DNA from: an uncultured Elusimicrobia bacterium
GTDB taxonomy: Bacteria > Elusimicrobiota > Elusimicrobia > 2-01-FULL-59-12
Reading direction: 5' to 3'
NCBI GenBank assembly: GCA_963702895.1
Contig: OY969767.1
Coordinates: 1,376,001 to 1,440,000, forward strand
Length of the DNA stretch: 64,000 nucleotides
In this document: piece by piece, positions 26,028 through 55,112 of the stretch
How the letters are laid out: each line of letters starts with the position of its first letter
How positions within the stretch are numbered: position 1 is the first letter of the stretch
Translations under genes and position numbers: made by a program
Notes under the pieces: model-generated
What the model saw: the letters and a program-made list of their open reading frames with translations, nothing else
Databases searched by the model: none
What the model was told of the DNA's origin: nothing

Positions 26028-29000
26028 ATGATTCCCTTTATATTTCAGCGATTTGTCGCACTTCTCCTGGTCCCCTCCCTTCTCGTGGACCCGCTCACGG
26101 CGGCTGCCTTATCCAATGAAAGTCCGAGACCTGTTGACTTGGCTGCCGCACGCGGCGTCAATTTCCTCAACCAAGCCTTAATGGAGAGGCTGACAGGCGC
26201 TGAATTCCATCCTGCCGCATCGCCAAAACATATCAGTGTCGTGAAGGATTTAATTCAAAGATTGAGGGAAGCCGCGAAAGGGAAAGTTCAGGGCGGGTCG
26301 TCAACCGATCATCCGTCCTCTGGTAAGGTCGGCCATGGCGATACCGCAGGCTCCGTTAACGGAAATGGTATGTCGCGGCGTGATTTGCTGAAGCAATCTG
26401 CGCTGGCTTTGATGGTTCAGAACCTTCCGGCAGCGGCTCAAGCGGCTCTCGAGGCAGTCCCCATGAAGAGGCGCACGGCTTTTATCCAATTTCTCAGTGC
26501 CTTTCAACAAACACTTGAAGCCTTGCCGCGCGAGGTGAGAGACTACCATCAGGACCCCGACCTCCAGATGGGTGCCGGCAAATTCGGAGAGTTGGCAGAC
26601 GCGATCAGATCCTTGCGCGCTCAAGGAGCTTCGTCAGGGTTCAGCTCGGGCGCGTTGGGGGATTTGCAGGACATCTTTAAATTTTTGCAAGGGTCCGTTC
26701 GTCAACAGGTGGCGTCTCCGGAGTGGCAGACCCGATTTGCTCCAGAGACGCTCAGGATGCTCCAACTCGCAGCCTCGTCACCGAATGACTTTGAGCTGGA
26801 ATATCGTGTCGGCCTCTCCTGCCGCTGGCTGGAAAGCAACGGTATACAGGTAAGCCGTGAGGCAGCCCTGCAATCCGCGCGCGACGCTGTGGTGACGGGG
26901 CAAGAGCCACTTGGCGACTACCTTCAGAAGTGGCTTACGCCGCTCGTTTCAGAGCGTGTCGCGCCTACGGTCGCGCAGGAGGCGCAGCAATTGGCTCGCC
27001 TCGGCGCAAACCCAATTCAAACGGCGGATGCTTTTGCCGTGGAATTCATCCGTGAGTTCCAAAAACATCCTGGCAACGCTTTCTGGCCGAATCCGGATAA
27101 ATTCCAGAAATATGTTCATGGCCAGGCGCGGCTCAAGGCGTTAGATGCGTTCCGCAGCAGCGTCAGCGAATTGGGGACGACCCTGGCGAAGGCTGGGGTC
27201 AGAATCGACGGCGGATTTGTGTCAGCATACAGCAATGACGACTGGGGTTTTAACAAATGGATGAAGGATCCCGCTGCCTATATCCAAGAGATCCGAAGAA
27301 TCACTTGGACTTCGCATGTCCGCGGAATGATGTTACAGCGGCTCGAAGAAAAACGGTCACGCTACAACCACGTCGCCTACCAGCGATTGAGAGACAGCAT
27401 CTTTGACATCCAGGACGAGGGCCTCGATCTGGACGCGGACCCCGACACGCTGTTCCACCAGCTCGAGTCCGCCATGGACGCGGAAGGAATCAACCGTCTC
27501 CCGGCAATTCCCGCGAACCGCGTGCCGCCTCCAATGTCCCAGGTTAAGGCACCCGGCGGCGTGCCCGCGGATCTGGATTCGCTCGTCAAGGACATTGCCG
27601 AGAGAGCGACAGCGACGGATGTCGAGGTCCGGGTCTTTATGGATGCGAAGGGGGCCGTCCGGTTTTTCGACATCCGCCCCTTGGATCCAAACGTGAGAGG
27701 CTTGCTGAGGACCCTGAGAGGCGCAGACCTCCCGTTCCTGAAGAAGAGGAACGGCCGCCCAGGGTGGCGTTACGGAATGCGCATCTCAAAGGGGACGCCT
27801 GCCTCAAAGATCAAATCGCGTCTCTTGTCGGGACTCGATTCTGGCCTCTGGCTGGACTTTTACACGGCGCCGCAGCATGACGGATCCCGCCTCCTCCCAG
27901 CTCAAGAGCCGCAAGCGAGCGAACCACTTTTAGCGCCCCGGATGAGCATTTTCAGCGGCCCCGAGTGGTTTGAACGGTGGGGCGCCCCCCTGGAAAGCGT
28001 GATGGTGGGCGCTCTGGCCAGCGGGATCCCGGCGCTTCTGCTTCTCCTTGTGGGCGTGGACTCAAGTGCTCCGACTGTCCTAAACGAGGCCGTCTTGTTG
28101 CCCGCGATGGCTTTGCTGATCTTGACCTTGGGCCAATGGTTGGCCGTTGACCTGTATAGCGGGCGGCATCCTTTGGATCGAAGGGAAGCATGGGACCGGT
28201 TGATCCGAAATGGCACATGGCTTCGGACTCCGCCGCAGAAGGTGCACGGTTGGGCCACGCGCATTGCCCTGGGCGCTGGCGCCGCGGCGCTGCTCCTGCA
28301 GGCCACGCCGGTACTACCCCTCAGCCTGGCGTCCTACCTCGCCGTCGTCGCAGGGACCTACACGCTGACCCATCTGGCCGTTCATTTCCACCACAATCTC
28401 ACCCACGACAGCGACTTGCGCATGAGCCTTCGTCCGGCCGTACGACCTCCGCTCAATATCCCGATCATGGAATCCCTAAGAGAGCGATGGAAATCGATTT
28501 TGATCGCCGCGCTGTCTCCTCTTCCGTTTTATCTCATCCCCAGAATTATACAGAGACTCATGAAATGGCCGTTTCCTTCGGATCTGGAATTTATGATCAC
28601 ACTTCTGTTCGGTTTTGCGATCGGCATGGCGGGCATGATCATCTATGAAACAGCCGCGCATACGCTGAAATCTCAACGTGGGGCGGGGACCGAACCTTCG
28701 GGACCCTTGGTGACCCAGGGCTTATATCAATGGGTCCGACACCCTATTTACATGGGTTATTTCCTTGCCTACGGCGGAATCCTGTCGATGTTCAGCTCTC
28801 TGATTACCACCGTGCCCTTATTTGTCGTTCTCCCTTCGGTGGTCTACTACTGTGTCGACAAAGCGGGCGCGGAAGAGACCCACTTGCATGCTCGGTTCGG
28901 CGATTTATATCGTGATTACGCGCGCCGCACCCCTTCCTTTTTCCCCTTCCGGCTGCCACGGCTCCGTCTGATGTCGGCAACGGCTCCCGCGGTCGACGGC

Positions 29001-32000
29001 CAACACGAAACTCAAGACCCGGATTCCGAAATCGCCGTTGAGGAGAAGCCTCTCGTCATCATGGCCGAAGATGACCGCCTGCGCCGGCCGCGTATCTTTG
29101 ACGAGATCACAAAATTCCTTGGTGATGCCTATGCTTATCGCGTCTGCAACGATGGGCTTGAAGCGTGGAAAGTCATTGAGGACGCTATAGCATCCGGCCG
29201 CCCCATTGCCCTTCTCGTCACCGACATCTCCATGCCCGGAATTTCGGGATCGGAATTGACGGCACGTCTGCTCGCGTTGCACCCATATGTCCCCATCATC
29301 ATTCATACCACCGAAGCTATGGACGACCTCAGACAAGCGTTCATGGACCCCCGCGTTCGAATCGTTGCCAAAGAAAATTACGCTGGCCTTCGAAGCGATA
29401 TTGCGGAACTTCTGAAGTTGCCCCCCAACGCCGCGGTCGGTAGCGCGGATTCAGCTCCGATGCCGCAGGATGACCCATCACCCGCCAAAAAGACAACTGA
29501 ACCGGCCGCGGGGACTCCTGCAACTCCTGAGCCATCGTCCACAGAACCACAAGCATGGTTGTCGTCGTTCCACGACCAAACCGAAGTCTGGGTGTTCTTC
29601 TTGATCGGCGCCTCCCTGCTCGCGGCCCAAGGTCACATCTTCCCGGTGACCGCGGACTCCGAGACGATGCCTGTGGGTCTTCCCGTGTTTCTTGGATTGG
29701 GGCCCCCTTACAATTTCATTGTCGGTGCTTTTGATCGGGCCCTCCGCCGGATTTTTCCACCTCTGTTTTCGGGACCGGCTGAAGCGTTCACAAATCTGAC
29801 GCCGGAATGGTTTCGAGCGTCCTACAGCGCTTGGCTGCAAACTAAGCGAGGCCGTGCGCTCACGACGGAGGAAGAAACTGAAATTGATCGGTTTGCGCGA
29901 CTCTTGGCTCCCCCGCTGAATCCCATACGCGCAGAAAAACCGACCTGGAAGGACGAATGGAACTCTGCGTACCGGTACATTTTTTTAGGGCAACCTTTGG
30001 ACCTCAAGTCAAAGCGCGCACCAGCGGAAAACGCGACCTCCCTTGGTGAATTGAACGACGCGCTGAAGATTATCGACGGCTACCCCCGCCTATGTTTAAC
30101 GGCTGCCCCCTTGGCGTTTAAGATCCTTCAGGCGCGGGGCTTTTCCGTTCGAAGGGTGAGACGGACGAGATTCGAGGGGATCGTTGAACACGAGTATGTC
30201 GAAGTCGAAGTGGCGGGGCAGTGGCTCATTGTTGATTTGGTGGCGAGCCAATTCGGCATCTTGCAAACCTGGGGTGTTGTCGCGATCCCGAAAGAAATCG
30301 CGACATCCGAGCCTGCCGTGCAGATCTACACGTACGGGGAAGCGGTCGTAAAGGAACAGGCCTTGCTGCCATCCAACCCTGAGACCCCAGGTGTTAGCGA
30401 TAGCCGCGATCTCATCGGACTTGACGCGGTACGGTTTGTTCTATCGAATCAGATGGGACGGAGACTCCCCGAGACCACCATTCAAGAATTGACCAGCTAC
30501 ATCGAAGACTTCTTAAGGGCGCATCAGCTGGAATGGTTGCTGGACCGTGCCAGCATCACGGAGACACGACAGGGGGTGCGGGACAGCACCTCGGAGCTCC
30601 ATGCAGGGCACCAAAACCAAAACAGCCTCGACTGGGTCGAACCCGCGCTGGCTGCGCGCGGCGCCTCCAGGGACACGATCTACCAGCTCAGGTACACTCT
30701 GCCTGGACGATCTCCTCGTAACACTCACGCCGTTTATGAAGCGGTGTCTGCTCTCCTGTTGACGCTCGTGCCGGATGACGTGCCAGTCTATCGCTGGATC
30801 GAGCCCGCCCATGCTGGCCTCCCGGGCGGCGACAGCATGCGAAGCTATTGGGCCGTTGCAACGGCCCAAAACAACAAAGACTTTGCCCATTCAGGCCGTA
30901 TCCTTCTTAAAAGCTATTTTGGACGCCTCAGGCAGACAGGCGTCTTGGTTGACGATACGGGCGTTGACTTCCCAGCCATCTCTCTGATCCATGATCGAAG
31001 AAACGGCCTTGTTTCGCATGAGGTTGTAACTCCTCAACTCGTGCAACCTGGTCCCACCGCATCCACGCTTTCCTCTGCTTTCTCAATACTGGCGGTCTGG
31101 TTGCCCATCCTGATCGGCGCCTCCCTGCTCGCGGTCCAGATGGCATCCGGCCAGTTCTTCCCGGGAGCCGCACAACCAGAAGCCCTGCAGGCGGGCGGCG
31201 CGGCCATGGGGCTGGGCTGGCTCTTCTTGCGTTTGATGGATCTGGTCTCTGCGCCTGAAGGACGCCACGTGGATCCAAGCCCGTCCAGGACGGCGAAAAC
31301 CCAGGCGGCCGATCTGGGAATAGTCTTCAAGCCCCATCTGCTTGAACAATTGCGATATGCGCTCCAAGGCCCCCGTATCGAAGTTTTGAAACGGTTGTTG
31401 GAGTGGGCGGAAGGGTCCGAACTGCGAGGATTGTATCTTCGCACTACCCTGATGCAGCTTGTCGAGGACAATCCCTCATTCGGGGATCGCTTTCATCAAA
31501 AAACGCTTGCCTTGTTCCGGGAGCTGCGCTCGACACCGACACGTTCGACGGTGCAGTACCTGGCATCCCTATTCACGAAAGACAGTACCGCAGGGGTATG
31601 GCTAAAAAACAACCGGATATTCTTGTGGGACGCCACTCACACCTTCGAAGGTCGAATCAATGTGCGGTATTCCCTAAGCTCCGGCCAACGTCAAGCCTTG
31701 GTCGGCGATCTTCTTGTCCCGGAGTCCGGCTCCACCTTCCTGCTGGAATCGGTCCGGGAGGTCTTGAACGACAACCGTATTGGCGATGACGATTTGAACT
31801 ATCCGCTGCAGGTAACAATGATTCAGGAAGGGCTTCGTCAAAAGGTTTACGCCGTGTTCGTCGAATTGAAGGACGGCCGAATGGCGCCGTTTGTCATATC
31901 GGTGCCCCAGAGCGTGAAGCAGAACAACATGGTCAGGAAGGAATTCGAATACTTGCGCCTCCACATAGGTGATCCGCATGCTTTGAGCGTCCTTCGATTA

Positions 32001-32972
32001 GGGTCTGTCAAGCTGGGCGGCACTAAATTCTATGTTTACAGCAGTCTTTTTCTTGACCGATATTCCGAAGTGGTCTACCACCACCGGAGGGCTGGTCTCT
32101 TTCAAAGTAGCCCGGGAGCGTTTCTAGCAACATCCTCGCAGCCACCCCAAACGGTGAGGCTGACCCCCTACGACGCAGCGCGAGTTCTTTCCAAAATTGT
32201 CGCCGTCCTGGTTCATTTTTATGATCCGGAAAAACGCACCATGCTGGGCGGAGTTGATGTGCCTGCCGGAGATTTCAACTTCCCGGATTCCGCGTTCCTG
32301 GATTTCGAGCCGCGAACAGCCACCGTCATTGACACAGACCAACCGGTGAAACTGATCGCCTGGCGGTCCATCGCCCATGGGGTCGACCCAGCAGCATTTA
32401 TTGATTACGTCCTGAGCCTGCGCTATTTGAATTCCAATCCCAGGCTCATTGATTTTGACAGCAACCTCAAAATCGGTGTCCTTGCAGGATTGCGAAGCGG
32501 GCTGATTGCGCGGTACGGATACGAGGAAGGCCAGCGAATACTAACACGCTGGTTCCAGGCGTATGCTGATGCCGTTGATCAGGACCGGTTTATAGAAAAT
32601 GGATTTTTCCAACTTGATGCGCTGCACGGATTCCTGGAGCAGCTCACGGCTCCCAACTCCGGGAAAGCCGGCCCTCGACCCGAGCCGGCGGTTCGCTCTT
32701 CCCGCGCCGGCAAGCTTATCGGCATCCTCTTGATCGCTGGTGCCGCGGCTGCCGCACGTCACGCTGTCCCGGGAATCATCGACATCGGCGCGGGTTCCGA
32801 TTTGATCGGCCGGATTGCCGGGACAGACCTGTTCGCTGGCTCGGCAGTTACTCAGGCCGGCGGCTTGGGCGTGGCGTTGGGCTTGCTCATGGCTTATGGC
32901 CTGGGCGCGCTGAGCCGCCGCTTGGCAAAGAACCATCCCGCTCGTCAACGGGCCTTGGGGCGGGCGGCATGA
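26028..32972 (+). CDS. Giant multidomain membrane protein 1 (~2310 aa)
   Basis: Uninterrupted ORF; AAGGAG upstream of ATG 26028. Clear motifs: ICMT/PEMT-like methyltransferase (VRHPIY...EE..L..RFG..Y..Y) and receiver domain (AEDD, TDISMPG). Tentative: Cys-His-Asp transglutaminase-like, ART-like and kinase-like regions. Confidence 0.85.
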   Translation: MIPFIFQRFVALLLVPSLLVDPLTAAALSNESPRPVDLAAARGVNFLNQALMERLTGAEFHPAASPKHISVVKDLIQRLREAAKGKVQGGSSTDHPSSGKVGHGDTAGSVNGNGMSRRDLLKQSALALMVQNLPAAAQAALEAVPMKRRTAFIQFLSAFQQTLEALPREVRDYHQDPDLQMGAGKFGELADAIRSLRAQGASSGFSSGALGDLQDIFKFLQGSVRQQVASPEWQTRFAPETLRMLQLAASSPNDFELEYRVGLSCRWLESNGIQVSREAALQSARDAVVTGQEPLGDYLQKWLTPLVSERVAPTVAQEAQQLARLGANPIQTADAFAVEFIREFQKHPGNAFWPNPDKFQKYVHGQARLKALDAFRSSVSELGTTLAKAGVRIDGGFVSAYSNDDWGFNKWMKDPAAYIQEIRRITWTSHVRGMMLQRLEEKRSRYNHVAYQRLRDSIFDIQDEGLDLDADPDTLFHQLESAMDAEGINRLPAIPANRVPPPMSQVKAPGGVPADLDSLVKDIAERATATDVEVRVFMDAKGAVRFFDIRPLDPNVRGLLRTLRGADLPFLKKRNGRPGWRYGMRISKGTPASKIKSRLLSGLDSGLWLDFYTAPQHDGSRLLPAQEPQASEPLLAPRMSIFSGPEWFERWGAPLESVMVGALASGIPALLLLLVGVDSSAPTVLNEAVLLPAMALLILTLGQWLAVDLYSGRHPLDRREAWDRLIRNGTWLRTPPQKVHGWATRIALGAGAAALLLQATPVLPLSLASYLAVVAGTYTLTHLAVHFHHNLTHDSDLRMSLRPAVRPPLNIPIMESLRERWKSILIAALSPLPFYLIPRIIQRLMKWPFPSDLEFMITLLFGFAIGMAGMIIYETAAHTLKSQRGAGTEPSGPLVTQGLYQWVRHPIYMGYFLAYGGILSMFSSLITTVPLFVVLPSVVYYCVDKAGAEETHLHARFGDLYRDYARRTPSFFPFRLPRLRLMSATAPAVDGQHETQDPDSEIAVEEKPLVIMAEDDRLRRPRIFDEITKFLGDAYAYRVCNDGLEAWKVIEDAIASGRPIALLVTDISMPGISGSELTARLLALHPYVPIIIHTTEAMDDLRQAFMDPRVRIVAKENYAGLRSDIAELLKLPPNAAVGSADSAPMPQDDPSPAKKTTEPAAGTPATPEPSSTEPQAWLSSFHDQTEVWVFFLIGASLLAAQGHIFPVTADSETMPVGLPVFLGLGPPYNFIVGAFDRALRRIFPPLFSGPAEAFTNLTPEWFRASYSAWLQTKRGRALTTEEETEIDRFARLLAPPLNPIRAEKPTWKDEWNSAYRYIFLGQPLDLKSKRAPAENATSLGELNDALKIIDGYPRLCLTAAPLAFKILQARGFSVRRVRRTRFEGIVEHEYVEVEVAGQWLIVDLVASQFGILQTWGVVAIPKEIATSEPAVQIYTYGEAVVKEQALLPSNPETPGVSDSRDLIGLDAVRFVLSNQMGRRLPETTIQELTSYIEDFLRAHQLEWLLDRASITETRQGVRDSTSELHAGHQNQNSLDWVEPALAARGASRDTIYQLRYTLPGRSPRNTHAVYEAVSALLLTLVPDDVPVYRWIEPAHAGLPGGDSMRSYWAVATAQNNKDFAHSGRILLKSYFGRLRQTGVLVDDTGVDFPAISLIHDRRNGLVSHEVVTPQLVQPGPTASTLSSAFSILAVWLPILIGASLLAVQMASGQFFPGAAQPEALQAGGAAMGLGWLFLRLMDLVSAPEGRHVDPSPSRTAKTQAADLGIVFKPHLLEQLRYALQGPRIEVLKRLLEWAEGSELRGLYLRTTLMQLVEDNPSFGDRFHQKTLALFRELRSTPTRSTVQYLASLFTKDSTAGVWLKNNRIFLWDATHTFEGRINVRYSLSSGQRQALVGDLLVPESGSTFLLESVREVLNDNRIGDDDLNYPLQVTMIQEGLRQKVYAVFVELKDGRMAPFVISVPQSVKQNNMVRKEFEYLRLHIGDPHALSVLRLGSVKLGGTKFYVYSSLFLDRYSEVVYHHRRAGLFQSSPGAFLATSSQPPQTVRLTPYDAARVLSKIVAVLVHFYDPEKRTMLGGVDVPAGDFNFPDSAFLDFEPRTATVIDTDQPVKLIAWRSIAHGVDPAAFIDYVLSLRYLNSNPRLIDFDSNLKIGVLAGLRSGLIARYGYEEGQRILTRWFQAYADAVDQDRFIENGFFQLDALHGFLEQLTAPNSGKAGPRPEPAVRSSRAGKLIGILLIAGAAAAARHAVPGIIDIGAGSDLIGRIAGTDLFAGSAVTQAGGLGVALGLLMAYGLGALSRRLAKNHPARQRALGRAA

Positions 32973-33023
32973 TCCAACTCCTTGCCCGGACCCTTCGCAG
33001 AGATGCAGAAAATCCAGGTTTTT

Positions 33024-39000: not shown

Positions 39001-40426
39001 CTCCACCCGCAAAGCGAATGTGCGGTCCAGTCTCGTGCGCCATTTCAGCGACGTGCAAATACGAACCCACGCGGGATACGTGCCCTTATCAGATCTTACA
39101 GGCCGGCTCCAGTTCGGCTTCAAGCGCCTTCGACGCTTCCGCGCCATGCAGCCAAAACAGCCAATTGACGAACCATCGGTTGCCACGCCGACATCCGACA
39201 TCAGCCTCAAGACCACCAGCATTTTTGTCGCAGGGATCCTGCAGGCCCCCCTGTGGGGGTATGGTCTGAGCCATATTCTTAGCGGGACTCCGGGTCTTTC
39301 CATGGGACACCTGCTCATTGGCGCAGGGTGGTCTTCGCTTCCCATCGCGACAGCTCTTTTTCTGACTGGCGGCTTTCTGGCGGCCGTGATTCCACTATCC
39401 CCTCCGAATCCTGCGGACAAGGTCCGCCTGTTGGGCTCTCAAGGGAAATGGCCGGGGGATGCGCTCCTTGAGGAGCTGGTCCGACTCGTGCAAAAAAAGC
39501 CGTCTATGAAGCAGCAAGATATTCAGTGGAGGGGTTACCGGATCACCGAGATCCTTTGGCAAATTCTCGATCAGCACCTGGGTTTTGACGGCCACACCAT
39601 TATCTACCCGGCCGGCGGGGCTGATGGATTGCCATCACGCTTTGCGGACACGATTGTGCTCAATCGCGACAGACTGGAGAATCAAGCACGCGAGACTTTC
39701 AGTCTGCCCAAGCCTGGGACACACCGTCTCACCTATCTCACGCTGGACGCGGCCAGTCCTGCCAATTACAACCAAGTCCGCTCCGACATCAAAACCCCGC
39801 AAACAACGTTACTGCTCAAGGGTCTCGAATGGATGCTCCCAACATCGAAGTTCTTTGTTCGGCGTTTGCGCGCGATTTGTAATGTCTTGCAACCGAATCG
39901 GGTGATCATCCTGCGCCGTGAGGATGCCGCTGCCGTGGTGCCTGTTCTTGCCGGCCTGGGCTATCGAGAGCGGACGGATTGGATTGATCGGACGCGCAAG
40001 AGAGTTCTTGAAGCGATCTTTAACTATATGTCCATATCGGTGCTGGATGAGGTTCAAACGCCATCCGGCCCCACGTTCATGATCCCCAATACAATCAGAC
40101 TGTTTGAAAGGAATAAGGGTCAACAGACCATGGCCGATCGAACGCCGCGGCATCGGGCCAATCGAAAGACAATCGCGCTTTTGGCCGCGGCGACACTCGA
40201 CGGCGGGCTCTTGGCCTGGGGCTGGGGCCACGTTCTTGACGGAGCGCAAATGCCGCTCGTCACCCAGGCCGCGTTCCTGGCGATGCCTACGTTCTCGTTG
40301 AGCACCGCCGCAGCGCTCTTCCTGGCCGGCGGCGCGCTTGTGTCGATCATAACGAAACAGACTCGTATATCGAGAGAATTTAACCGCCCATCTCGCACAC
40401 CCAGCCCGTTTCGCCAAGCCGCTTAA
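33024..40426 (+). CDS. Giant multidomain membrane protein 2 (~2470 aa); leader joined through a 1-nt frameshift near 33101-33120
   Basis: Leader MHRTIRRSAAVLLIVCLVVDP lies in a different frame from main ORF 33146-40426. Motifs: sigma-r4-like HTH, HATPase-like (LLKNA...GTGHGL), kinase-like (VAIK...ID), HELG zincin-like, SAM MTase (DWGCGSG), GNAT-like. Confidence 0.82.
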
Positions 40427-40526
40427 ATCACCCCCATCTTCGACTTCTCCGTAGCCGCACAGCCCGCACGAAACGCTTCAACAGGAAAAGATATAATCTT
40501 ACTGATGCGACTTTTTGGAGGTGTCT

Positions 40527-40742: not shown

Positions 40743-40751
40743 GGACGAACC

Positions 40752-41111
40752 ATGCGGTTTCTGGCTGATATGTGCGTCTCCCTGGAAGTCGTCGAGTGGC
40801 TCCGACAGCAACAGCATGACACCAAGCATCTCCGAGAGGAAAACCTTCACAGGCTGCCGAATGGAGACATCTTCAAGAAGGCGGCCGCAGAAAATAGGAT
40901 CCTCCTCACCTTTGATTTGGACTTCGGAGAAATCGTAGCGCTGGCGAAAGGAAACCAAACGGGCGTTATTTTGTTCAGGCTCTACGACACGCGGCCCGTG
41001 CATGTGATCGAACGCCTAAAGGTCCTCCTAGCTGATGCTCCTCCCGCCCTCAACAACAGCATCATTACTGTTGAAGAAACCCGCTACCGAATCCGCCATT
41101 TCCCCACTTGA
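40752..41111 (+). CDS. DUF5615 PIN-like putative toxin
   Basis: MRFLADMCV...RILLTFDLDFGE...GVILFRL. Confidence 0.9.
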   Translation: MRFLADMCVSLEVVEWLRQQQHDTKHLREENLHRLPNGDIFKKAAAENRILLTFDLDFGEIVALAKGNQTGVILFRLYDTRPVHVIERLKVLLADAPPALNNSIITVEETRYRIRHFPT

Positions 41112-41355
41112 CATCGCACCCCATAGCCCAAGCCAGTCGCATCGCCTGAACAGCGCTATTCCAGACTATTCCGCAGTCTATTGAAGAATAGTCATGACTA
41201 TTCTTCAGTGTTCCTCGCGGTCAATAAACGGCCCAACCAAAACCATGGGCCCTTTGGCCCGAAATTAATGGCCGTTCGCACCATTTATCCCCTTCTCAAA
41301 ACGCTTTAGAATCAAGTGATGGCTCGAACGCGCGCCCGCGCGGGTTCGAGCGCCT

Positions 41356-44300: not shown

Positions 44301-47300
44301 AAAGGGAAGTAAAGCCGGAACCTTGCCATTTGAACTTTATCCCGGTGCCGATGCAGGGGCTCGGAAGCCTGCATCCCCTCGCCCGGCCCGGCCGGCCACC
44401 CAGCTGCCCGAAGCGGTCCCGGTCTCTGACCCCTCGGTGTCGCTCGACCTCGCCCCGGCTGCCGCGGTTTCCCTGGCACCGGCTGCCGCGACCGCCGTCT
44501 CGCCGCCTAGCCCTATCGCCGATTCGCCGCCTCCATCCACCGATGGCTCGCCGACCCGCCGGCCCGCCGACCCGCCGACTCGCCGCGTCGCCGCATTGGA
44601 CGTCGACCCCGCCGCGCCGGCGACAAGCCCGTTCCGGCCGTGGCGGTGGATCGCCGCCGGCATCGCAGTCGCCGCGGTCGTTGCCGCCCTGCATTTCGGC
44701 CCGACAACGTTCAGACAATTCCGGGACGGGTCTTCAACGCCGCGCCCGTCGTCGTCCGCGAGTCAGGACTACGTCTATGAGCCCGGGCCGGCGTCCGAAA
44801 CCACACACGACCGCGTCCGTACCATGATGGGACCGTACTACGGCATGGATCTTCAGGGACATCGGGCGGAATCCGGAGAACCCCGGGCCGATGCGGGAGC
44901 TCCCTCGCAGCCCCCCGCGCTGAACCCATTGGAGAACATTGCAGACATACAGCTGAGCGGTCATGCCGCGAATGAAATGCTGATGATGGCATTCGCGAAC
45001 ACGATGGAAGACGGCGGCGTTTTATCCCACGCGGGACGAATTGACTTCGTGCCCTCGGATAAACTCACGAAAGAACGCACCAAAGTCACGCTGATTTTGC
45101 CCGCATTGCGCCAGGGCCAGGCGATGCGCATGCCCATTCCCCTCAACCGCCGGGTCGATCCCCTGAGCATCTCGGACCCACGCCTCTGGGTTGACGCCCA
45201 GGGCTGGCTCACGGCCCGGGAGGATACCCCCCCGCTCACCGTGACCTTTGATTGGATCACGACCTTGGAAAACGGCTCCTTCCGGGCGAACTTCCCCGTG
45301 ACACCCTGGATGGAGCGGGAATTCCAAGATATTCCGCCGGAGGTTCGAAGGGACCTTGACCGCGCTCTAGGGCTCGATGAACATGGACGCGCGAGCGTCC
45401 TGGCCGGCGTGGTTGAGAAATACCTCGGCTACAACCAGCAACAGAGAGTTCAACTTCGTCGGGGGACGTGGAATCGTTTCATTGGAGAAGTTCTTGAGAC
45501 GGAAGGGCGGTTTAAGGGCGATTGCGACGTCTTGGCCACCGTCGGTTGGATCTGGGCCAGGTATCTTGGACTTGATGCTGTCATGGCAGCCGGCCGGAAC
45601 AACAGGGGCGGGGGCTCACGGTCCGGAACGAACATGTCCCACGCCGTCATGGTCATCCGGATCGGCGGCAAGTGGCTCGAATTCGACCCTTCCAAATGGG
45701 CGCCGCCCGTCGCCAGTGAAAGTCTTGCGCCTGACCAGCCCTCCGCCGACGGGAAACGGCTGGATGCCGGTCCCATGCCGACACCGCTCAAGCCCTCACC
45801 CCAGTTTGTCGCTACCTTTATCCCGAACCCCGAGCTTTTCCCGCCACCTCGAACGGGACCACCCGCCAGTGCAAAGCCTACCGCGGAGCGACCCGTTCCG
45901 CCCGGCGTGGGTCAGGAATCACCGAAGACCGAACCCGGCGCCAAAGTGGGGCCTGCCGAGAAGCCCGCGAGCGCCAAGAAACCCGCGAGCACCGAAACCC
46001 CCGCCAAGCGGCCCAGCACCTACCGCGTTCAGCCCGGCCAGAGTTTCAACGATATCGCGCGCTTGATATTCACGGATGAGAAATATCCCTACCCGGCGGC
46101 CTTGGATCTGATCGTGGACAACATCAACCACACGATCGGCGGCGACCCCGACCGCCTGATGGCAGGAGTCGACCTCATCGTACGGCCTACGAGCGCGTAT
46201 TCTAGTCCTGTAGCAGGGATGGATTGGGAATGGGGCCTCCATCGAAAATATGGACGGGCCTGGTATGAGCGGCGCCATGCCTTGCTGCAGCAGGCGCTGA
46301 CCCGGGAAAGTCAACGCCCGTCACCCTATACTTCGGAATACCAATCGGAACTGCGGGCGCGCGCGGGCGCCCGGTGGCGCTCGATCGAATTCGACATCCT
46401 TGCCATCAACGACATCCTGAATTGGATCGAACAACGCTTCGGGGTCAGATTCCAACGAGTTGACCTTATGCAGGCGATGGCTCAAACCATGGAGCGCAGT
46501 CAAATCATCTTGAAGCTGACGTCAACCGGCCGTTCAAAATCCGGAACGACCGCCGCCCCGAAGCAGACGGCCGACGGGGAATCGGCGAAACGGAGAAGCG
46601 GTGAACCGGCGGACTTGCCTCTGGGCCATTCCACGAAAACAAGTCCGGACGACCGACTCATCGCTCCGAAGAGCATCACTCCCCTCATGGCAGGCCTGCT
46701 CCAGGCTCCGCTGTGGTGGTGGGGGCTGAGCCACCTGCTGGGCGGGCCGCAGACACCGCTCCTGACCCAGGCCGCCTTCCTGGCCCTTCCGGCCATCCCG
46801 CTCGGCGCCGCCCTGGCCCTGTTCGCGGCGGGGGTCGTGGTGGCGGGGATGGCGGTTTTGGGGAGAAAGGTTCTGAAGCAAACCAGACCCGAGCGCATTG
46901 AAATACAACTGACCCCAATGGACAGACCCTATCAATTGGATCTCGTCAAGTCAGGTGGCAGCCATTCCCGGGGAGATTTGATTCGTCTCGATTTGGAGGA
47001 AATGCGGCTCGAAGCGCACAAGACCGGCGTACCCGGCCGTATGGCTGTTCGTCGAGTCTACCTCGAAGAGCTTGGACACGCTGTTGACGCGCGCCGCTTC
47101 GTCAGAGAAGGGCGGCCTCTTAGCGGCTTTGTAAGACCCAACTCACCTTTACAGACGTATTGGGACCACCACAATCCCAAAGACCCTGAGCATGACATGA
47201 AGGAGCTAGTGGCGGGTCTCAGGCACATCCTGTTTGCGCAAACCCCCTTTGAGGCGGAAAGAGCCCTCATAAAATTATCGCAGGTAGCCAATGATCCGAC

Positions 47301-50300
47301 CGACAGCCACTATTGGGGCGGACGCTTCGCCCTTGAGAGGATTCTCCAACGCATCGACGCAGGGCGAGGCGAGAGGGTGGATGATCTGACAAACTATTTG
47401 CCACGCCTCATCTATGGGTCAGGGGCGTTCCCGGACCTGCCTACGCTGCGTTTACTGGCGAAAGAATTATGTATCGAAAACCTGCGGGACTATCCGCCTG
47501 ACGGAGACGGTCTCCCTGCGCTGAGCGCGGATGGGTCCCGGATCGACGTTCCGGATGAGACCCAACAAGCTTTGGCAACGGTGTGGCGCGCATTCGAGAC
47601 TTACACGGGAAAATCATTGGCCGATGACGCGGTCCCCACGCCGGAACATGTCCGACATTCACAAGCGGCGAGGAGCGGGCTGCCTGGGTTTGACCGAACG
47701 GGCCATTCTATTCATGACCCTGGTCTTGCGCAAGGGAGAAAGATGGTTGGTATGGTCATCGCCGGCCTGCTCCAGGCTCCGCTGTGGTGGTGGGGGCTGA
47801 GCCACCTGCTGGGCGGGCCGCAGACACCGCTCCTGACCCAGGCCGCGTTCCTGACGATGCCGGCCATCCCGCTCGGCGACGCCCTGATCAGCTTCGCCGT
47901 GGGCGCGGCGTGGATCGTGGTGGCGGGGATGGCGGTTTTCGGGTCAGGGGCGCCCGCTCCGGGGCAGGAAGGGGTTTCCGGTCCTGTCTCGCCGGGACCG
48001 TCTTCCAATACCGCGGCCGCCGTCCGGAGGTCCTTCGAAGCGCAGGCTCGAGTACTGGCCGGTATCCCCACCGTGACCGAATTTGAAGCTAATTTCCCAG
48101 GCACGATACGTCGCGTCGATCTTGGACCAGGCTATTCGAATTCGTTACGAGCCGGAGAAGTTCCTAAGATCGATTTCACGCGTCGAATACAGGGAAGAGT
48201 CTACCAGCCACCACCGGCGTCGGAAAACGATTGGCCGAAATGGCTGGACCTGTACGTCGAAAAAGACGCCCAGGCGCTTGTCGTGAGGCTGATGAGAGCG
48301 GGCTTTCGCCCCGATTATTCCAACGCTTACGGAGATGGCCTGAAAGGAGTGTGGTGGACCCGAACCAGCCACCATACTGACACCGTCGGTTCCAACGCAA
48401 CAAATACGTTCTTTACTCCATTGACAGAGGAGGATTATCTCGCGCCGGACCAAGGCGAACATCCGGGCGAGACTCCTAACGACCCAGGAGCGCCTGTTAC
48501 ACCAACAGAACCTCCCTTGAATTGGATCGAAAAGAATGACGCAGCCCTCGAGCAACTGAGTCCCATCGACCGTCAGCTTGTCGATGCCATTCTCCAAGGC
48601 GCCTTACACGGCGATGCTGAACTGCTTGCCCAGTACCCAGAAAAAGTTTATATCGATCCTATTGAAGTTGGACGCTCGGATGAAGGCCGAACAATCTTTC
48701 TCAAGCTTGAAACGAGCATCCTAGTAGAAGGCCGCTACCTCACACACCTGCGATTCAAAGGCGCTCGCCCCCATAAAGGGCGCTACGGGCAGGGGAACCA
48801 AGTCGCCTATCTCGGACGTCGGGGCCATGTCGAGCGGCCTGTAACGGTCGATCAGGAAGGGCGATTGACGGTTTTTGCCGGTCAACTTGACCCCATGGGA
48901 GGTATGCGCCGTATCGGGGCTGCCAACGAATACGCTTTGATGCAAAGCGAAAACAGCCAAGGCGCCTATCGCACGGACGTGCCGATCGGCTGGGGCATCT
49001 TCCCTGGATTTGCATTTGAAAACGAACCTCTGGGCTGGGCGATCGCAGGGATGGAAGGGCCCGACGTTCGAATAAACGGGCGTCGTCAGAATCAGCTGAT
49101 CCTCCGGTCGCGCACGAACGACCCTTATGGGATGATTGAACTGTCTCAGGAACAGTCGCAACACCTCGCCAGGCTCATCGGTGAGAGCATCTGCGCTTAT
49201 CATCAAAAAGGCCGTTATCACCGCTACCCCCATTTTGGAAATATCGGCGTGGCCTACGATACTGTCACCCGTTCCATCCGTTCTGTTGTTCTGCGGGATT
49301 TGGAGACCTCCGTCCGGAAAGACAGCCTGAGCGGATCTCCGAAAGAAATTGAGAACCAAATCATTGCTTGGCGTTTCCGGGATGTGATTCGGTTGATCTA
49401 TCAGTTCTCCTTCAGACCACGGCCCAATGACCCGCTCATCGGCGCCCTCTTGCGCGGATACTTCCCGGAAGGGACTCTAAGAAATGATGATCTTCAGGCC
49501 CTGCTTGTGACCATTTGCCGTCCCAACTTTCTCGATGATTACGCATCCTTATTCTACGACGATGAGACGCAAGATCTCTCGAATTTGATCGACACTCTCG
49601 ACATCCAATCTCATCCTAATTATCAGCATCTTTGGAACGCGATCAGACAATCCATGGCGAGCCAGCCCGCCACTCCTGAAGGGAATGACGGTTCGGCGAC
49701 TCAAGAACATCCGGGTCGCATTGATCCGACGGGCTTGCGCCGCGTGCTCCCGGCAATCGCCCTCCTGGCCGCTCTTCCCTGGACCTACGGCTTCACTTCG
49801 ATCAGCGGCTCTCCCGGATCCGGCGCCGCGATCCCGCTCGGCGCCGCCCTGGCCCTGTTCGCGGCGGGGATCGCGGTCCTGATCTCAGGGAATTCCCCTC
49901 GAAAACGCAAAATACTAACTAAGGCGGCGAGCCATAAGGCAGGAAGGCAAAAGCCGGTGAGTGGCGATGCACCGGGTCCTTCGCGTCACGTTTACCCTGA
50001 CCCCGTCGTCATGGAGAAAAGTCGTTACGATCTTCCAAAGAGTTTGAAGTCCTGGTCTTGGCTCGCTCGCAACAAGGACCAACGTCAATGGCTGCGGGAC
50101 GTATTCCTGCCGAGACTCTTGGCGACTCAAAACCTCCGCGCTCCAGGACAAATCAAGGTCGTAGACCTTGGCGTAAGCACCGGAGAAGTCCTCGCCCGAA
50201 CTTACTATGAGATTTTCCAGCATCTCATAGAAAACACCTTGAAGGGAACATGGAAGGCCAGGATGGTAGGTGTTGATAGGGATGCGACCGTGCTGGCGGA

Positions 50301-51876
50301 AGCCCGTCTTCGGATAAGCGGCAAGCACCCTTTCAATGATATCTCGATCTCTGGCCCTACCATTGAAAAACCAACCCCCTACTCGGCGGCCGTGGTGGAT
50401 TTCTTAAACAGCGACCCGGCGGCCTTTCAATCCAGCGTGCAGCTGGAGCAGCTCGACATCACCGACCATGATTCGCTGGACCCCGTTTTAGACGGTGTCG
50501 ACCTGATCATGGTCAACCACGTCATGGAATATTTGCACCCGGCGGACGTAAAGCCCTTCTTGCAACACCTGTACCAGAAGGCCCCGCAAGCCTGGTTGGC
50601 CATGGAAAATGAATACAGTACTCCCGCCGAAGCTCACCACCGCCAATGGATACCTTATCAGCCGACGCATTTGCCGGGCTTTCGCCCAACGGATTCAGGA
50701 AGCAGCTCACTTCCCGGCGAGAACACACCCCGGTCAGCGGCTGTGGTCGGCATCTTCGCCAGCTGGCTCGCGCTCAGTCAGGCCGCATCCTCCGCTCACC
50801 TCCCCAGTAGGTTGGAATCCCTGCTTTCATTCTTCTATTCGATATCGCCGCTCTTTCCCTGGCTCATGCTCGCCGCGACAGCGGTCTGGCTGGCGGGCAC
50901 CTTTGTCGCGCTGAGAACTCTTTGGAGGCACCCCTCTCGGGTGCCGAGCATAAGACAGGGCGGTACGGCTTCGCCCAGCCCGGCCAGAGCGCTCACTTTT
51001 CGGTACTATTCCGAACTGACCCCCGGACAAAAAGCTGATGTAACGCTAGCTTCATTAATCAGAAGGTTAGGAGCAAGACGTGAGGTGCACGTCTACGATA
51101 CGAAACCATTGGGCAGCCGGTGGGGCCAATTGCCGATCCTCACCCGGTGGAGCCTGCGCCGTTTCACGCGTAACCTGACCCCTGATCCGACAACACTCAG
51201 ACTCGATGCTCTCGTCGCCTATCGTGGAGACATTCCCATGGGTGTTTACGCGTTCATCGATCTCGGTCCAGATCGTCAAATTGTTATGGACAACGGCATC
51301 TACATGGACGCCGACCAGAGGCAGAACGGATACGGTGGAAAACTCACGAAGGAACTCCTCAGCAGGCTGGCAGAGCGCGGGTACAGAATGTTCGTTTTGG
51401 GACCGCCTTTGGGAACGGCTGAAGCGGAGGGGCTCCGTCGGTGGCTGAGCGCTGCCCCAGGCGTTGAAACGCGGGGCAGAACAACCATCGTCCATCTCGC
51501 TAACTACCGAACAAACACCGCCAATTCCCAAGCCGCCGGCAAACCCAAAGGCAAAACAAACGATTCCGCCCCGGAAGCGGAGCCCGCTGACGCGCCGCGC
51601 GGCATAAAGCTTCGCAGTTCCGCGCTGGCCGGCGCTCTCGCCAGCGCGATCGCGCTCAGCCAGGCGCCGTTTGCCCCCCAACTGCCGGATTGGCTTTCTC
51701 CCCTCTTCAGCACGGCGAGTTCGCTGGCGCCGCTCGTTCCCTGGGTGGGGATGGCCGCCGTGATCGGTTGGCTTTTACGGCCAGCTCTGACTCGCATGCT
51801 GTTGAAGGCCCTTCCCCGCCTGCGCGGCAGTCGTTCATCCCGAGCCATCCATCATCACCTTCGAGCCGCGGCCTGA
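41356..51876 (+). CDS. Giant multidomain membrane protein 3 (3506 aa)
   Basis: Uninterrupted ORF. NagB-like domain (PTGSTP, TFNMDEY, GHVAFNE, ALTMG), SAM MTase (LELGAGLG), transglutaminase (GDCD...HA...W..FDP), LysM (YRVQPGQSF..IA), zincin-like (EELGH), kinase-like (HRYPHFGN...D), CheR-like (DLGVSTGE), GNAT. Confidence 0.88.
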   Translation: MPKSLIRIVALILVPCMLLDPSSAFAELARPAAWRAPFPAGVSLASPQATHAALRLDSFPFGIQALVPPSWLSRPISWIQRASELARQASRNRFQVRWTSLAGSPFSFPVLGTDERPIRPVQFSVSQNEIGGGQDGTGQIVTTPSGSRFQVFDTPQTMAAAQAGEIAEIIHANDAAGRITILILPTGSTPIPVYHELVRLYQARQLSFRNVHTFNMDEYYPGPQAPCAWAQHPQSYRRFMDELLFSKVDIPRANIHFLNGQAADPAAEAARYEQEFRDLAPNGADLELGGVGSRGHVAFNEAVVHLTDDFLQRLTSKNREALGLSNDFALEVTAGHELAALAMILQGHWNFREGETFVRWLRARIKTTGRITEESLQKLAERLRRQRVTIGWNPDSPDAKDIQDFVNQASARFGFPIELADLRKLDDSQTHLRELALSTVVDNSVHFAEPADIPTQALTMGLGTLRHSQRTRILASTPNKIPPLEQVAAGPVSEQVPVTDVLRHPDTRFLVTQAAIPPTVRTALARTSGLVLNSQPETRNPKAESGTPAARDTKLYTHPIAVMALAWMASSHFYSWDPAGTGLLLLLTIAPLMAWQGRIFRGKSGMNTFRRLDALLRHLRGLSYARCRELLATGLDRFVPPRRKHRQREFPAIALPAAAPGNPFQLRPPTAVELAFPSRYESAVHAKFVGNDPYDDRTRAIVQAHATAAYVDLMREIFKRTGGTLRGVSFLELGAGLGAIVDVLRTRAGVDAQGIEVRREFVQFARDHGVPLIQGTLLEVPLELAGKTFQITFSRQLLDAIETTDRATEGPMPSQVTHEEELRVLATIAALTAPGGWSIHQTYSSNPIPFTDEELTQAGFQIVSMNPRRTMMVLRRLSDPPPSSPVRRPEAAEETIKPEGKKGPSLYTHPIALMALAWMASSHFYGWDPAGILPLLLLLVPLMAWGPGRYRQWMTSLSGRGPRYKAKQWERKLDEDLRRLRGKGSKAGTLPFELYPGADAGARKPASPRPARPATQLPEAVPVSDPSVSLDLAPAAAVSLAPAAATAVSPPSPIADSPPPSTDGSPTRRPADPPTRRVAALDVDPAAPATSPFRPWRWIAAGIAVAAVVAALHFGPTTFRQFRDGSSTPRPSSSASQDYVYEPGPASETTHDRVRTMMGPYYGMDLQGHRAESGEPRADAGAPSQPPALNPLENIADIQLSGHAANEMLMMAFANTMEDGGVLSHAGRIDFVPSDKLTKERTKVTLILPALRQGQAMRMPIPLNRRVDPLSISDPRLWVDAQGWLTAREDTPPLTVTFDWITTLENGSFRANFPVTPWMEREFQDIPPEVRRDLDRALGLDEHGRASVLAGVVEKYLGYNQQQRVQLRRGTWNRFIGEVLETEGRFKGDCDVLATVGWIWARYLGLDAVMAAGRNNRGGGSRSGTNMSHAVMVIRIGGKWLEFDPSKWAPPVASESLAPDQPSADGKRLDAGPMPTPLKPSPQFVATFIPNPELFPPPRTGPPASAKPTAERPVPPGVGQESPKTEPGAKVGPAEKPASAKKPASTETPAKRPSTYRVQPGQSFNDIARLIFTDEKYPYPAALDLIVDNINHTIGGDPDRLMAGVDLIVRPTSAYSSPVAGMDWEWGLHRKYGRAWYERRHALLQQALTRESQRPSPYTSEYQSELRARAGARWRSIEFDILAINDILNWIEQRFGVRFQRVDLMQAMAQTMERSQIILKLTSTGRSKSGTTAAPKQTADGESAKRRSGEPADLPLGHSTKTSPDDRLIAPKSITPLMAGLLQAPLWWWGLSHLLGGPQTPLLTQAAFLALPAIPLGAALALFAAGVVVAGMAVLGRKVLKQTRPERIEIQLTPMDRPYQLDLVKSGGSHSRGDLIRLDLEEMRLEAHKTGVPGRMAVRRVYLEELGHAVDARRFVREGRPLSGFVRPNSPLQTYWDHHNPKDPEHDMKELVAGLRHILFAQTPFEAERALIKLSQVANDPTDSHYWGGRFALERILQRIDAGRGERVDDLTNYLPRLIYGSGAFPDLPTLRLLAKELCIENLRDYPPDGDGLPALSADGSRIDVPDETQQALATVWRAFETYTGKSLADDAVPTPEHVRHSQAARSGLPGFDRTGHSIHDPGLAQGRKMVGMVIAGLLQAPLWWWGLSHLLGGPQTPLLTQAAFLTMPAIPLGDALISFAVGAAWIVVAGMAVFGSGAPAPGQEGVSGPVSPGPSSNTAAAVRRSFEAQARVLAGIPTVTEFEANFPGTIRRVDLGPGYSNSLRAGEVPKIDFTRRIQGRVYQPPPASENDWPKWLDLYVEKDAQALVVRLMRAGFRPDYSNAYGDGLKGVWWTRTSHHTDTVGSNATNTFFTPLTEEDYLAPDQGEHPGETPNDPGAPVTPTEPPLNWIEKNDAALEQLSPIDRQLVDAILQGALHGDAELLAQYPEKVYIDPIEVGRSDEGRTIFLKLETSILVEGRYLTHLRFKGARPHKGRYGQGNQVAYLGRRGHVERPVTVDQEGRLTVFAGQLDPMGGMRRIGAANEYALMQSENSQGAYRTDVPIGWGIFPGFAFENEPLGWAIAGMEGPDVRINGRRQNQLILRSRTNDPYGMIELSQEQSQHLARLIGESICAYHQKGRYHRYPHFGNIGVAYDTVTRSIRSVVLRDLETSVRKDSLSGSPKEIENQIIAWRFRDVIRLIYQFSFRPRPNDPLIGALLRGYFPEGTLRNDDLQALLVTICRPNFLDDYASLFYDDETQDLSNLIDTLDIQSHPNYQHLWNAIRQSMASQPATPEGNDGSATQEHPGRIDPTGLRRVLPAIALLAALPWTYGFTSISGSPGSGAAIPLGAALALFAAGIAVLISGNSPRKRKILTKAASHKAGRQKPVSGDAPGPSRHVYPDPVVMEKSRYDLPKSLKSWSWLARNKDQRQWLRDVFLPRLLATQNLRAPGQIKVVDLGVSTGEVLARTYYEIFQHLIENTLKGTWKARMVGVDRDATVLAEARLRISGKHPFNDISISGPTIEKPTPYSAAVVDFLNSDPAAFQSSVQLEQLDITDHDSLDPVLDGVDLIMVNHVMEYLHPADVKPFLQHLYQKAPQAWLAMENEYSTPAEAHHRQWIPYQPTHLPGFRPTDSGSSSLPGENTPRSAAVVGIFASWLALSQAASSAHLPSRLESLLSFFYSISPLFPWLMLAATAVWLAGTFVALRTLWRHPSRVPSIRQGGTASPSPARALTFRYYSELTPGQKADVTLASLIRRLGARREVHVYDTKPLGSRWGQLPILTRWSLRRFTRNLTPDPTTLRLDALVAYRGDIPMGVYAFIDLGPDRQIVMDNGIYMDADQRQNGYGGKLTKELLSRLAERGYRMFVLGPPLGTAEAEGLRRWLSAAPGVETRGRTTIVHLANYRTNTANSQAAGKPKGKTNDSAPEAEPADAPRGIKLRSSALAGALASAIALSQAPFAPQLPDWLSPLFSTASSLAPLVPWVGMAAVIGWLLRPALTRMLLKALPRLRGSRSSRAIHHHLRAAA

Positions 51877-53361: not shown

Positions 53362-55104
<1,743 letters not shown>

Positions 55105-55112
<8 letters not shown>

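Follow-up and report, generated by a model that had tools for sequence, protein, structure and literature searches.

What joins three neighbouring giant genes whose proteins share almost no sequence, and where in the cell would such proteins work? This question is raised by a stretch of 64,000 nucleotides from an uncultured Elusimicrobia bacterium (hereafter the window; positions 1,376,001 to 1,440,000 of contig OY969767.1, assembly GCA_963702895.1), in which three giant open reading frames (ORFs), named G1, G2 and G3, lie side by side on the + strand. A first-pass annotation had described them as a co-oriented array with a homologous leader, enzyme-like cargo, recurring hydrophobic linkers and a hydrophobic-basic-Ala-Ala tail, and had proposed either a polyprotein cut at the linkers or a membrane-threaded effector string aimed at prey or host cells. 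The ORF calls (2,314, 2,426 and 3,506 aa) bear out the array itself. G1 and G3 are intact, and both belong to a family of modular membrane proteins that is restricted to one lineage and in which a conserved N-terminal leader co-occurs with an Ala-Ala-type C-terminus. We tentatively read its members, with somewhat less than an even chance of being right, as proteins stapled to the membrane, with a C-terminal end that imitates a ClpXP degron of the ssrA type.

The leader is a nearly invariant stretch of about 27 residues at the N-terminus, and its homology in the three genes was confirmed with a profile hidden Markov model (HMM). In the own genome, 13 genes encoding 587-12,935 aa match it (E values of 1.8e-14 to 2.7e-6), and one further fragment does so weakly. 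The consensus of 149 sequences reads M-[PN]-K-x-L-x-R(95%)-[IL]-V-A-L-L-L(99%)-V-P(85%)-C(91%)-L(93%)-x-A-D(91%)-P(97%)-x-T-A-x-A, with the reservation that these conservation figures are circular, the sequences having themselves been chosen by the leader profile, A1. It fits the Sec-type form: the n-region has K in 79% and R in 95% of sequences, the hydrophobic stretch is 13-14 residues long, and A (79%)-x-A (51%) comes after D-P. Another hydrophobic segment follows within 160 aa of the leader in 47/89 family proteins. Within the same GTDB family the profile matches 9 of 10 further genomes (3-31 matches each), the negative one (G007) being 95% complete; in the order or class beyond it, 20 genomes representing 12 families gave no match. 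Among 1.84 billion public cluster representatives it finds 250 proteins at E<=1e-3, nearly all from residue 1; a word-index search with it returned four own proteins and one other. Family proteins range from 0.35 to 13 thousand residues (kaa).

In G2 the leader fragment (HMM 2.2e-14) ends in a run of eight C (C8; 33113-33120) and lies in another frame than the body. One additional C in this run joins the two frames into a protein of about 2,467 aa, so that the annotated length of about 2470 aa holds for the joined gene and not for an uninterrupted ORF. Directly past the frameshift stand a second hydrophobic helix and an RKRRPR cluster. The rpoD gene of the same window (53362-55136, - strand) is likewise broken: a frameshift at a run of six G (about 53974-53979) within conserved sigma region 2 divides it into two ORFs. 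This is most likely a homopolymer error of the assembly, and a warning for other frameshifts in this genome. Because rpoD is also broken at a homopolymer, the break in G2 is probably an assembly indel and G2 probably an intact gene; alternatively, the length of the C8 run may reflect phase variation. The public sequencing runs listed comprise one DNA run with a small share and no RNA run; two 151-nt contigs from it cover 33136-33441 only, with the C8 run outside.

The second common element is the extreme C-terminus. All 13 strong leader genes of the own genome end in [A/S]-A (10 AA and 3 SA), compared with 88 of the 2,070 ORFs that reach 120 aa, a background that itself counts the family and insertion sequence (IS) copies. 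From the relatives, 40 leader ORFs were fetched, of which 31 have a true stop; 19 of these end in AA and 23 in [AST]A. Among the 150 matches listed from public clusters, the [AST]A end is found in 31/43 non-own proteins of at least 300 aa but in only 5/100 shorter fragments, which serve as an internal control. The non-redundant union, which includes 14 own genes (one of them pairing the weak leader fragment with a separate 1,029-aa ORF), gives 65/83 leader proteins with this end against a background of about 4-5%. Of these 65 tails, 50 have a hydrophobic residue at -5; the set is rich in Arg at -4 and -3, A (48 tails) or S (16 tails) stands at -2, and the last residue is A. The annotated tail is thus present in all three genes, whose ends (RAA, QAA and AAA) satisfy the form hydrophobic-x-x-[A/S]-A-COOH. 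The terminal Ala codons and the stop codons vary and the 3' DNA is not conserved; hence, selection on the tail acts at the protein level. In addition, the basic stretch after the last helix suggests, from its composition, that the tail lies on the cytoplasmic side.

Between leader and tail, the recurring linkers resolve into 14 hydrophobic modules of four sequence types: type A is shared by G1 and G2 and type B by G2 and G3, and types C and D are confined to G3. The tail modules have homologues among the internal hairpins, of type A for the G1 tail, type B for the G2 tail and type D for the G3 tail. Outside hairpin and tail segments, BLASTP finds no mutual similarity between the three bodies, in agreement with the first description. 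Searched against own-genome ORFs of 100 aa or more and against the ORFs of 40 relatives' loci (L026-L065), the HMMs of types A-D match only G1-G3; hence, the linker grammar is architectural rather than a single sequence family. This outcome goes against the first-pass annotation, which had counted a failure of linker HMMs to find other giant ORFs as refuting its proposal. Hairpin types are common only to adjacent genes. The 15 residues on the C-side of the 14 modules (210 in total) hold 48 K/R and 11 D/E, versus 26 and 24 on the N-side, each class making up about 11% of the proteins as a whole. Given these basic C-flanks and the two-helix modules, the hairpins would have both ends in the cytoplasm. 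An AF2 model of type B, built from a five-sequence alignment, shows long helices of 22 and 27 residues and a short loop helix, at low confidence (predicted local distance difference test, pLDDT, of 60). No motif common to the four types was found after helix 2. The idea that internal hairpins are cryptic C-termini was rejected by a motif count, the terminal [KR]-x(1-3)-[AS]-A motif occurring in 2/11 internal hairpins vs a background of 17%, with no enrichment.

The hairpins also bear on how the genes diversify. Within G3, copies of the hairpin-coding DNA share 85-95% identity although the cargo on either side is unrelated, a pattern that suggests recent duplication, gene conversion or recombination at these sites. 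No orthologue of G1 was found in 12 relatives, three of them of the same genus and 73-89% complete, where matches occur at the domain level only; a search of other genomes' contigs with whole G1, the own genome being left out, returned one irrelevant ICMT fragment.

The known domains sit between the hairpins in all three proteins, so that domain boundaries respect the linkers, and many unrelated Pfam domains alternate with hydrophobic helices. Of the cargo first named by motif, the ICMT-like, receiver, class I methyltransferase and NagB domains have significant matches (Table 1), whereas transglutaminase core (E 0.015) and GNAT (E 0.06) match weakly, as does a second G3 methyltransferase (E 0.0023). 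The kinase-like segment is a lead only, and a single-sequence AF2 model of G3 residues 2210-2790 was unusable (pLDDT 34.5). The HATPase-like, zincin-like and CheR-like assignments and a LysM in G3 found no support at Pfam E<=5; LysM is significant in another family member. The NagB domain keeps the conserved sequence blocks of solved deaminases and aligns in two parts (query 8-166 and 288-365, that is G3 residues ~148-305 and 428-505), leaving about 120 residues in between without a match. G1 residues 1790-2255 gave no match by word-index search.

Elsewhere in the family the cargo is equally diverse. Members of the own genome carry TIM, class V FBPase, PfkB, RmlD, starch synthase, SLT, LysM and sigma-70 region 4, as well as aldo-keto reductase, histidine phosphatase, DnaJ, HTH, HD and methyltransferase domains. 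Pfam matches at 1e-5 were obtained for 19 of 37 relatives' ORFs scanned (adenylate kinase, iPGM, NagB with REC, a ClpB-like AAA+ domain, PPDK, PrmA-like methyltransferases; HTH/GerE, Bac_transf, Lactamase_B, trypsin, HATPase, HEAT, TPR) and, at 1e-6, for 17/43 proteins of the public set (NagB, GH16, trypsin, S8, ARMT1-like phosphatase, HATPase, HAD, methyltransferases, HTH, HEAT). Cytoplasm-type enzymes and regulators predominate overall. The view that the cargo forms no pathway is supported, and so, at the family level, is the mixture of cytoplasmic folds (methyltransferase, REC, NagB, TIM, FBPase, ADK, HTH) with extracytoplasmic ones (SLT, LysM, GH16, trypsin, S8). In the own genome, phmmer finds stand-alone homologues that are strong for TIM (9.6e-39) and GlgA (5.1e-19) but weak for PfkB, NagB and His_Phos (E 2e-4 to 1e-3); FBPase, MT28, GHMP and REC gave no such match.

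Long strings of unrelated enzymatic domains that vary rapidly between relatives recall the polyvalent proteins of phages and conjugative elements, reportedly described by Iyer et al. in 2017. Those proteins are said to be soluble, to lack leader, membrane hairpins and Ala-Ala tail, and to belong to mobile elements, whereas the genes of the leader family are chromosomal with only IS nearby. A likeness is also found in the giant, multi-enzyme proteins rich in transmembrane helices that two preprints describe for Omnitrophota (West-Roberts 2023, 10.1101/2023.11.21.568195; Nielsen & Lui 2026, 10.64898/2026.06.07.730766), with classes named 'Archaeovorin-type' and 'multi-enzyme metabolic cluster'. 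As far as their main texts go, these giants share with our family a patchwork of unrelated methyltransferase, receiver, HATPase, GNAT, starch synthase, SLT and glycolytic enzyme domains, a signal-peptide-like start, many transmembrane helices at roughly constant density and sequence-unique bodies; cleavage is suspected there without having been demonstrated, being discussed in West-Roberts 2023 ('cleav' 10 times) and absent from the main text of Nielsen & Lui 2026. On the other hand, the Omnitrophota giants are of 10-147 kaa, and G1-G3 lack the SecA-like and C39 domains described for them. With 2.3-3.5 kaa, G1-G3 fall outside the catalogue threshold of at least 10,000 aa in an Omnitrophota genome; one family member has 12,935 aa. 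The defining pair of a conserved leader and an [A/S]-A C-terminus was not found described there: term searches of the two main texts show no mention of a degron, hairpin or polyprotein, and the passages returned give no conserved leader or C-terminal end. Among the papers listed by literature searches, none presents such a leader/tail family in its title or the opening of its abstract.

How, then, would such a protein be handled by the cell? In the membrane-stapled reading, the leader would take the nascent chain to the membrane early, and the hairpins would staple the long chain there, entering and leaving on the cytoplasmic side. G2, with a second helix and then the RKRRPR cluster after its leader, would be the plainest full example. 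Most of the cargo dependent on S-adenosylmethionine (SAM), acetyl-coenzyme A (acetyl-CoA), phosphoryl donors or DNA would thus be kept at the cytoplasmic face, where its need for SAM, acetyl-CoA, adenosine triphosphate (ATP), phosphoryl donors or DNA fits, while odd-numbered spans would put the few wall-directed domains outside. The basic Ala-Ala tail, on the cytoplasmic side, would act as an ssrA-like degron for ClpXP or FtsH and give costly proteins a built-in or conditional turnover. Duplication and recombination at hairpin-coding DNA would let the genes grow and diversify, so that each species would come to have mosaics of its own. This agrees in outline with the membrane-threaded architecture first proposed, the topology being predicted from flanks and hydropathy.

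Degrons of the ssrA type are read by ClpXP and also by ClpAP, FtsH, Lon and periplasmic Tsp, and the membrane anti-sigma factor RseA exposes a VAA end after cleavage. Like them, the tails place Ala-Ala-COOH after neutral or basic, moderately hydrophobic residues, on the predicted cytoplasmic stretch of a membrane protein; unlike the ssrA tag and RseA, the ending is gene-encoded, neither added nor exposed by cleavage. The genome encodes a transfer-messenger RNA (tmRNA; G000:C1:2034607-2034975) with the tag GEPELALAA, which ends in ALAA; ClpX, one S41 peptidase and two FtsH-like proteins are encoded as well. A screen in E. coli (PMC10862746) found potent C-terminal pentapeptide degrons to be ClpXP-dependent, and the top 100 were neutral to positive and moderately hydrophobic, with an Ala-Ala end in 91%. 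The tails of G1, G2 and G3, with AA after R, Q or A, fit this rule. Since they do, and since the own tag has the same Ala-Ala end and the genome encodes both ClpX and FtsH, the tail is read as an ssrA-like handle for AAA+ proteolysis or extraction; its ClpXP- or FtsH-dependent degradation is putative.

Several observations weigh against the membrane-stapled reading. No [AST]A ending is present in 18/83 family proteins, the hydrophobic residue of the tail stands at -5 and not at -3 as in ALAA, and a quarter of the tails (16/65) end in SA, which may act differently on ClpX. A constitutive degron on a very costly protein is also counter-intuitive. At the other end, the leader resembles a Sec signal peptide in its basic n-region, short hydrophobic core and A-x-A, and the circularity of its conservation figures tempers its apparent invariance. 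In G3, P0042, L045, L052 and L029, cytoplasm-type cargo (NagB, REC, ADK or methyltransferase) follows the leader with no second hydrophobic segment; thus either those domains leave the cell interior or the leader is not a membrane-spanning segment. Some members hold extracytoplasmic-type SLT, LysM, GH16, trypsin or S8 domains. For long Omnitrophota proteins, DeepTMHMM favours a signal peptide plus transmembrane (SP+TM) topology with the bulk outside (Nielsen & Lui 2026, main text). Finally, the number of spans per hairpin rests on hydropathy and the low-confidence AF2 model.

Part of this evidence suits an opposite topology, in which the proteins would be effector strings that are exported, displayed on the surface or directed at prey: with a leader of Sec or lipoprotein-like type that is cleaved off, the chain would be threaded out, hairpins would re-anchor it, and the cargo would act in the periplasm, on the surface, or in host or prey cells. 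We regard this candidate as rather unlikely; the prey or host effector role of the first-pass annotation may apply. Its leader is indeed signal-peptide-like, with an L-V-P-C stretch that is lipobox-like at -3, -2 and +1; but position -1 is Pro in 85%, unlike the lipobox consensus [LVI][ASTVI][GAS]-C with its invariant Cys, and the Cys found in 91% of the public set is missing from G1 and three further own-genome members. Three signal peptidase I genes are encoded, and cleavage by such an enzyme with export of the next domain is a candidate step only. The absence of a hydrophobic segment between leader and ADK, NagB, REC or methyltransferase speaks for export, as do the SLT, LysM, GH16, trypsin and S8 cargo and the fact that part of the cargo looks like an extra enzyme set (TIM and GlgA are strongly duplicated; no stand-alone copy was found of FBPase, MT28, GHMP or REC); yet domains that depend on SAM, acetyl-CoA, ATP or DNA would have no substrates outside the cell. 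Likewise, the preprints call the Omnitrophota giants SP+TM and tie them to predation (West-Roberts 2023; Nielsen & Lui 2026, main texts), whereas the present array has no adjoining secretion genes, no recurrent neighbour but IS, and basic hairpin C-flanks and a basic C-terminal tail that suit the cytoplasmic side. The other half of the first proposal, in which proteolysis at or near the hairpins would turn a polyprotein into separate membrane-anchored enzymes of one domain and one hairpin each, appears very unlikely. It would explain why internal hairpins are homologous to terminal modules and why known domains lie between them, cleavage has been proposed for Omnitrophota giants (West-Roberts 2023, main text), and some family members contain trypsin, S8 or M50 domains. 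However, no protease domain was found in G1-G3 at Pfam E<=5, the four hairpin types have no common motif after helix 2, and the terminal motif in internal modules is at background, as counted above. Of six candidate membrane peptidases, three signal peptidase I paralogues and three rhomboids, none tracks the leader across the 31 genomes surveyed or is restricted to leader-positive ones, and sortase and exosortase are absent (PF04203 and PF09721; genome 98% complete).

The coupling of two signals can also be taken at face value, leader and tail forming a two-ended address for a dedicated sorting or assembly machine, like a signal peptide with a C-terminal sorting signal, and the tail being no degron. 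We consider this unlikely. As in the sortase (LPXTG), exosortase (PEP-CTERM) and type IX secretion system C-terminal domain (T9SS CTD) systems, an N-terminal signal is coupled, here strictly, with a C-terminal one in many paralogues of one lineage, and many members have a C-terminal hydrophobic helix and a basic cluster (a hydrophobic segment lies in the last 90 aa of 25/65 tails vs 182/1,174 background proteins). In those systems, unlike here, an LPXTG- or PEP-like motif precedes the helix or a folded C-terminal domain is present, while the conserved element of our family is the extreme C-terminus: no such motif, and no conserved motif N-terminal to the last helix, was found in the family tails. 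Also against this address are the missing sortase and exosortase, the lack of a conserved neighbour gene, and six peptidases of which none is co-distributed with the leader. As a long shot, the two-ended code might hand swappable spare enzymes and regulators of the cytoplasmic type to a membrane-bound AAA+ machine that grips the tail and pulls the hairpin-stapled chain, the outcome being either stepwise cutting into anchored units or transfer across the envelope to a partner or prey; if true, giant-protein biology here would run on a degron-like export or processing signal. Non-functional accretion, by which unselected long mosaic ORFs build up in an IS-rich accessory region, is barely credible. 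The IS directly 5' of the array, the lack of a G1 orthologue in relatives and the frameshift of G2 as assembled would agree with it, but the frames stay open over 2,300-3,500 codons, far beyond chance, leader and tail are conserved as protein sequence in a set of 83 despite varying codons, the NagB domain retains its sequence motifs, and the homopolymer frameshift in rpoD makes the G2 break a probable assembly error. Overall, we retain the membrane-stapled, degron-tailed protein as the preferred reading, at the tentative strength given at the outset.

Table 1 Features of the giant-gene array and its immediate flank (positions within the window)
Feature	Position	Strand	Basis or remark
IS256/Mutator-family transposase	24608..25855	+	Pfam Transposase_mut 8.6e-73; directly 5' of G1, outside the giant proteins
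G1	26028..32972	+	2,314 aa counted from leader Met; frame open from 25941
G1 leader	26028..26108	+	HMM 1.1e-11; Ser where most members have Cys
G1 multi-span ICMT/PEMT-like membrane methyltransferase region	27990..28949	+	Pfam ICMT 4.1e-6; NCBIfam isopcys_mtase 3.3e-9; PDB 5v7p 7e-5; hydrophobic segments
G1 response-regulator receiver domain	29058..29348	+	Pfam Response_reg 9.6e-8; PDB matches
G1 hairpin type A, copy 1	29580..29705	+	hairpin HMM
G1 hairpin type A, copy 2	31059..31253	+	hairpin HMM; DNA repeat D6
G1 last cargo domain, unassigned	31308..32705	+	resembles stand-alone hypothetical and DUF6206-like clusters; G006 ORF at 28% identity
G1 tail	32703..32972	+	type A hairpin, basic stretch, ...GRAA-stop (...LGRAA)
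G2 leader	33025..33120	+	ATG at 33025; frame differs from body; 3' end is the C8 run 33113-33120
G2 body	33146..40426	+	2,426 aa, GTG start
G2 hairpin type A	35102..35269	+	hairpin HMM
G2 hairpin type A, long loop	35978..36175	+	hairpin HMM
G2 class I SAM methyltransferase	38186..38488	+	Pfam Methyltransf_11 1.2e-4, above its cut-off
G2 hairpin type B	39200..39406	+	hairpin HMM
G2 tail	40166..40426	+	type B hairpin, basic stretch, ...FRQAA-stop
G3 5' region	41230..41355	+	-10-like TTAGAAT and GC-rich palindrome ending 9 nt before ATG
G3	41356..51876	+	3,506 aa
G3 leader	41356..41436	+	HMM 3.6e-12
G3 NagB-like (glucosamine-6-phosphate deaminase) domain	41797..42894	+	NCBIfam nagB 5e-46; PDB 7lqn 5.8e-33
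G3 hairpin type C, copy 1	43048..43143	+	hairpin HMM; repeat D4, 95% DNA identity
G3 class I methyltransferase	43498..43893	+	Methyltransf_23 1.2e-5; under Pfam cut-offs
G3 hairpin type C, copy 2	44071..44199	+	hairpin HMM; DNA repeat
G3 single hydrophobic helix	44641..44706	+	hydropathy; preceded by Pro/Ala/Ser-rich spacer
G3 hairpin type B, copy 1	46675..46866	+	hairpin HMM; repeat D1
G3 hairpin type B, copy 2	47740..47952	+	hairpin HMM; DNA repeat
G3 possible protein-kinase-like (SelO/Kdo-like) cargo, lead only	47983..49725	+	Atlas SelO 0.90, Kdo/InaA 0.80
G3 hairpin type B, copy 3	49735..49896	+	hairpin HMM; repeat D3, 94%
G3 hairpin type D, copy 1	50731..50922	+	hairpin HMM
G3 tail	51619..51876	+	type D hairpin, basic stretch, ...HLRAAA-stop

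The surroundings of the array are dominated by one mobile element. IS256/Mutator transposase copies adjoin 4/12 giant-gene islands within a few hundred bases, three of them on the 5' side; they lie at 24608-25855 of the window and at about 91.7, 808.0 and 1731.9 kb of the genome. This IS256-type transposase is the only recurrent family adjoining giant genes, a large two-component-like cluster being generic, and neither protease nor secretion genes were found among the neighbours of G1-G3. Upstream of the IS, a small cluster (20951-24458, - strand) encodes a LuxC-like acyl-CoA reductase, a LuxE-like acyl-protein synthetase and a class III aminotransferase. Further upstream, 16247-16888 (- strand) matches bacterial RNase P RNA class A from end to end; its 642 nt against a model of 367 positions imply large insertions.

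Five family genes, G3 and those of L072, L071, L077 and L075, have a 5' module in common, without an obvious Shine-Dalgarno sequence. Its elements are a GGGCC...TTGGCCC box lying upstream, the box TTAGAAT and the palindrome TCGAACGCGCGC..GCGCGTTCGA, whose end lies 8-9 nt 5' of the ATG. The GC palindrome of G3 folds at -23.3 kcal/mol, with a z score of only -1.7. No Rfam family was matched upstream of G3 or in 11 other family 5' regions, and no riboswitch was found there.

Other large genes of the genome were seen beside the leader family. A 78-kb island (G000:C1 730476-807850) encodes five giants of 4,068, 12,935, 3,018, 1,536 and 1,730 aa; all five have an [AST]A end and two match the leader HMM, and those without a match may have diverged leaders. 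About a dozen proteins of 1.0-1.65 kaa form a second large-ORF class that ends in ...GAKKTG[KQ]VVVI[KR] (G000:C1 ~2,189,000-2,232,000 and other sites). Giants of 13,707, 8,601, 6,682 and 4,698 aa have neither leader nor AA tail. A small signal peptidase I paralogue of 141 aa (G000:C1:2592792-2593214, - strand) has good matches in 4 of the 10 other family genomes and none outside the family.

Giant proteins of uncultivated, probably host-dependent bacteria had been reported earlier without a handle on their targeting, orientation, processing or removal. The strict coupling of a short leader to an ssrA-like Ala-Ala end makes the handling of such proteins experimentally approachable, and profile A1 together with the tail rule provides a signature with which the whole family can be catalogued in metagenomes. 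The hairpin-coding DNA, for its part, suggests that these mosaics are built by recombination.

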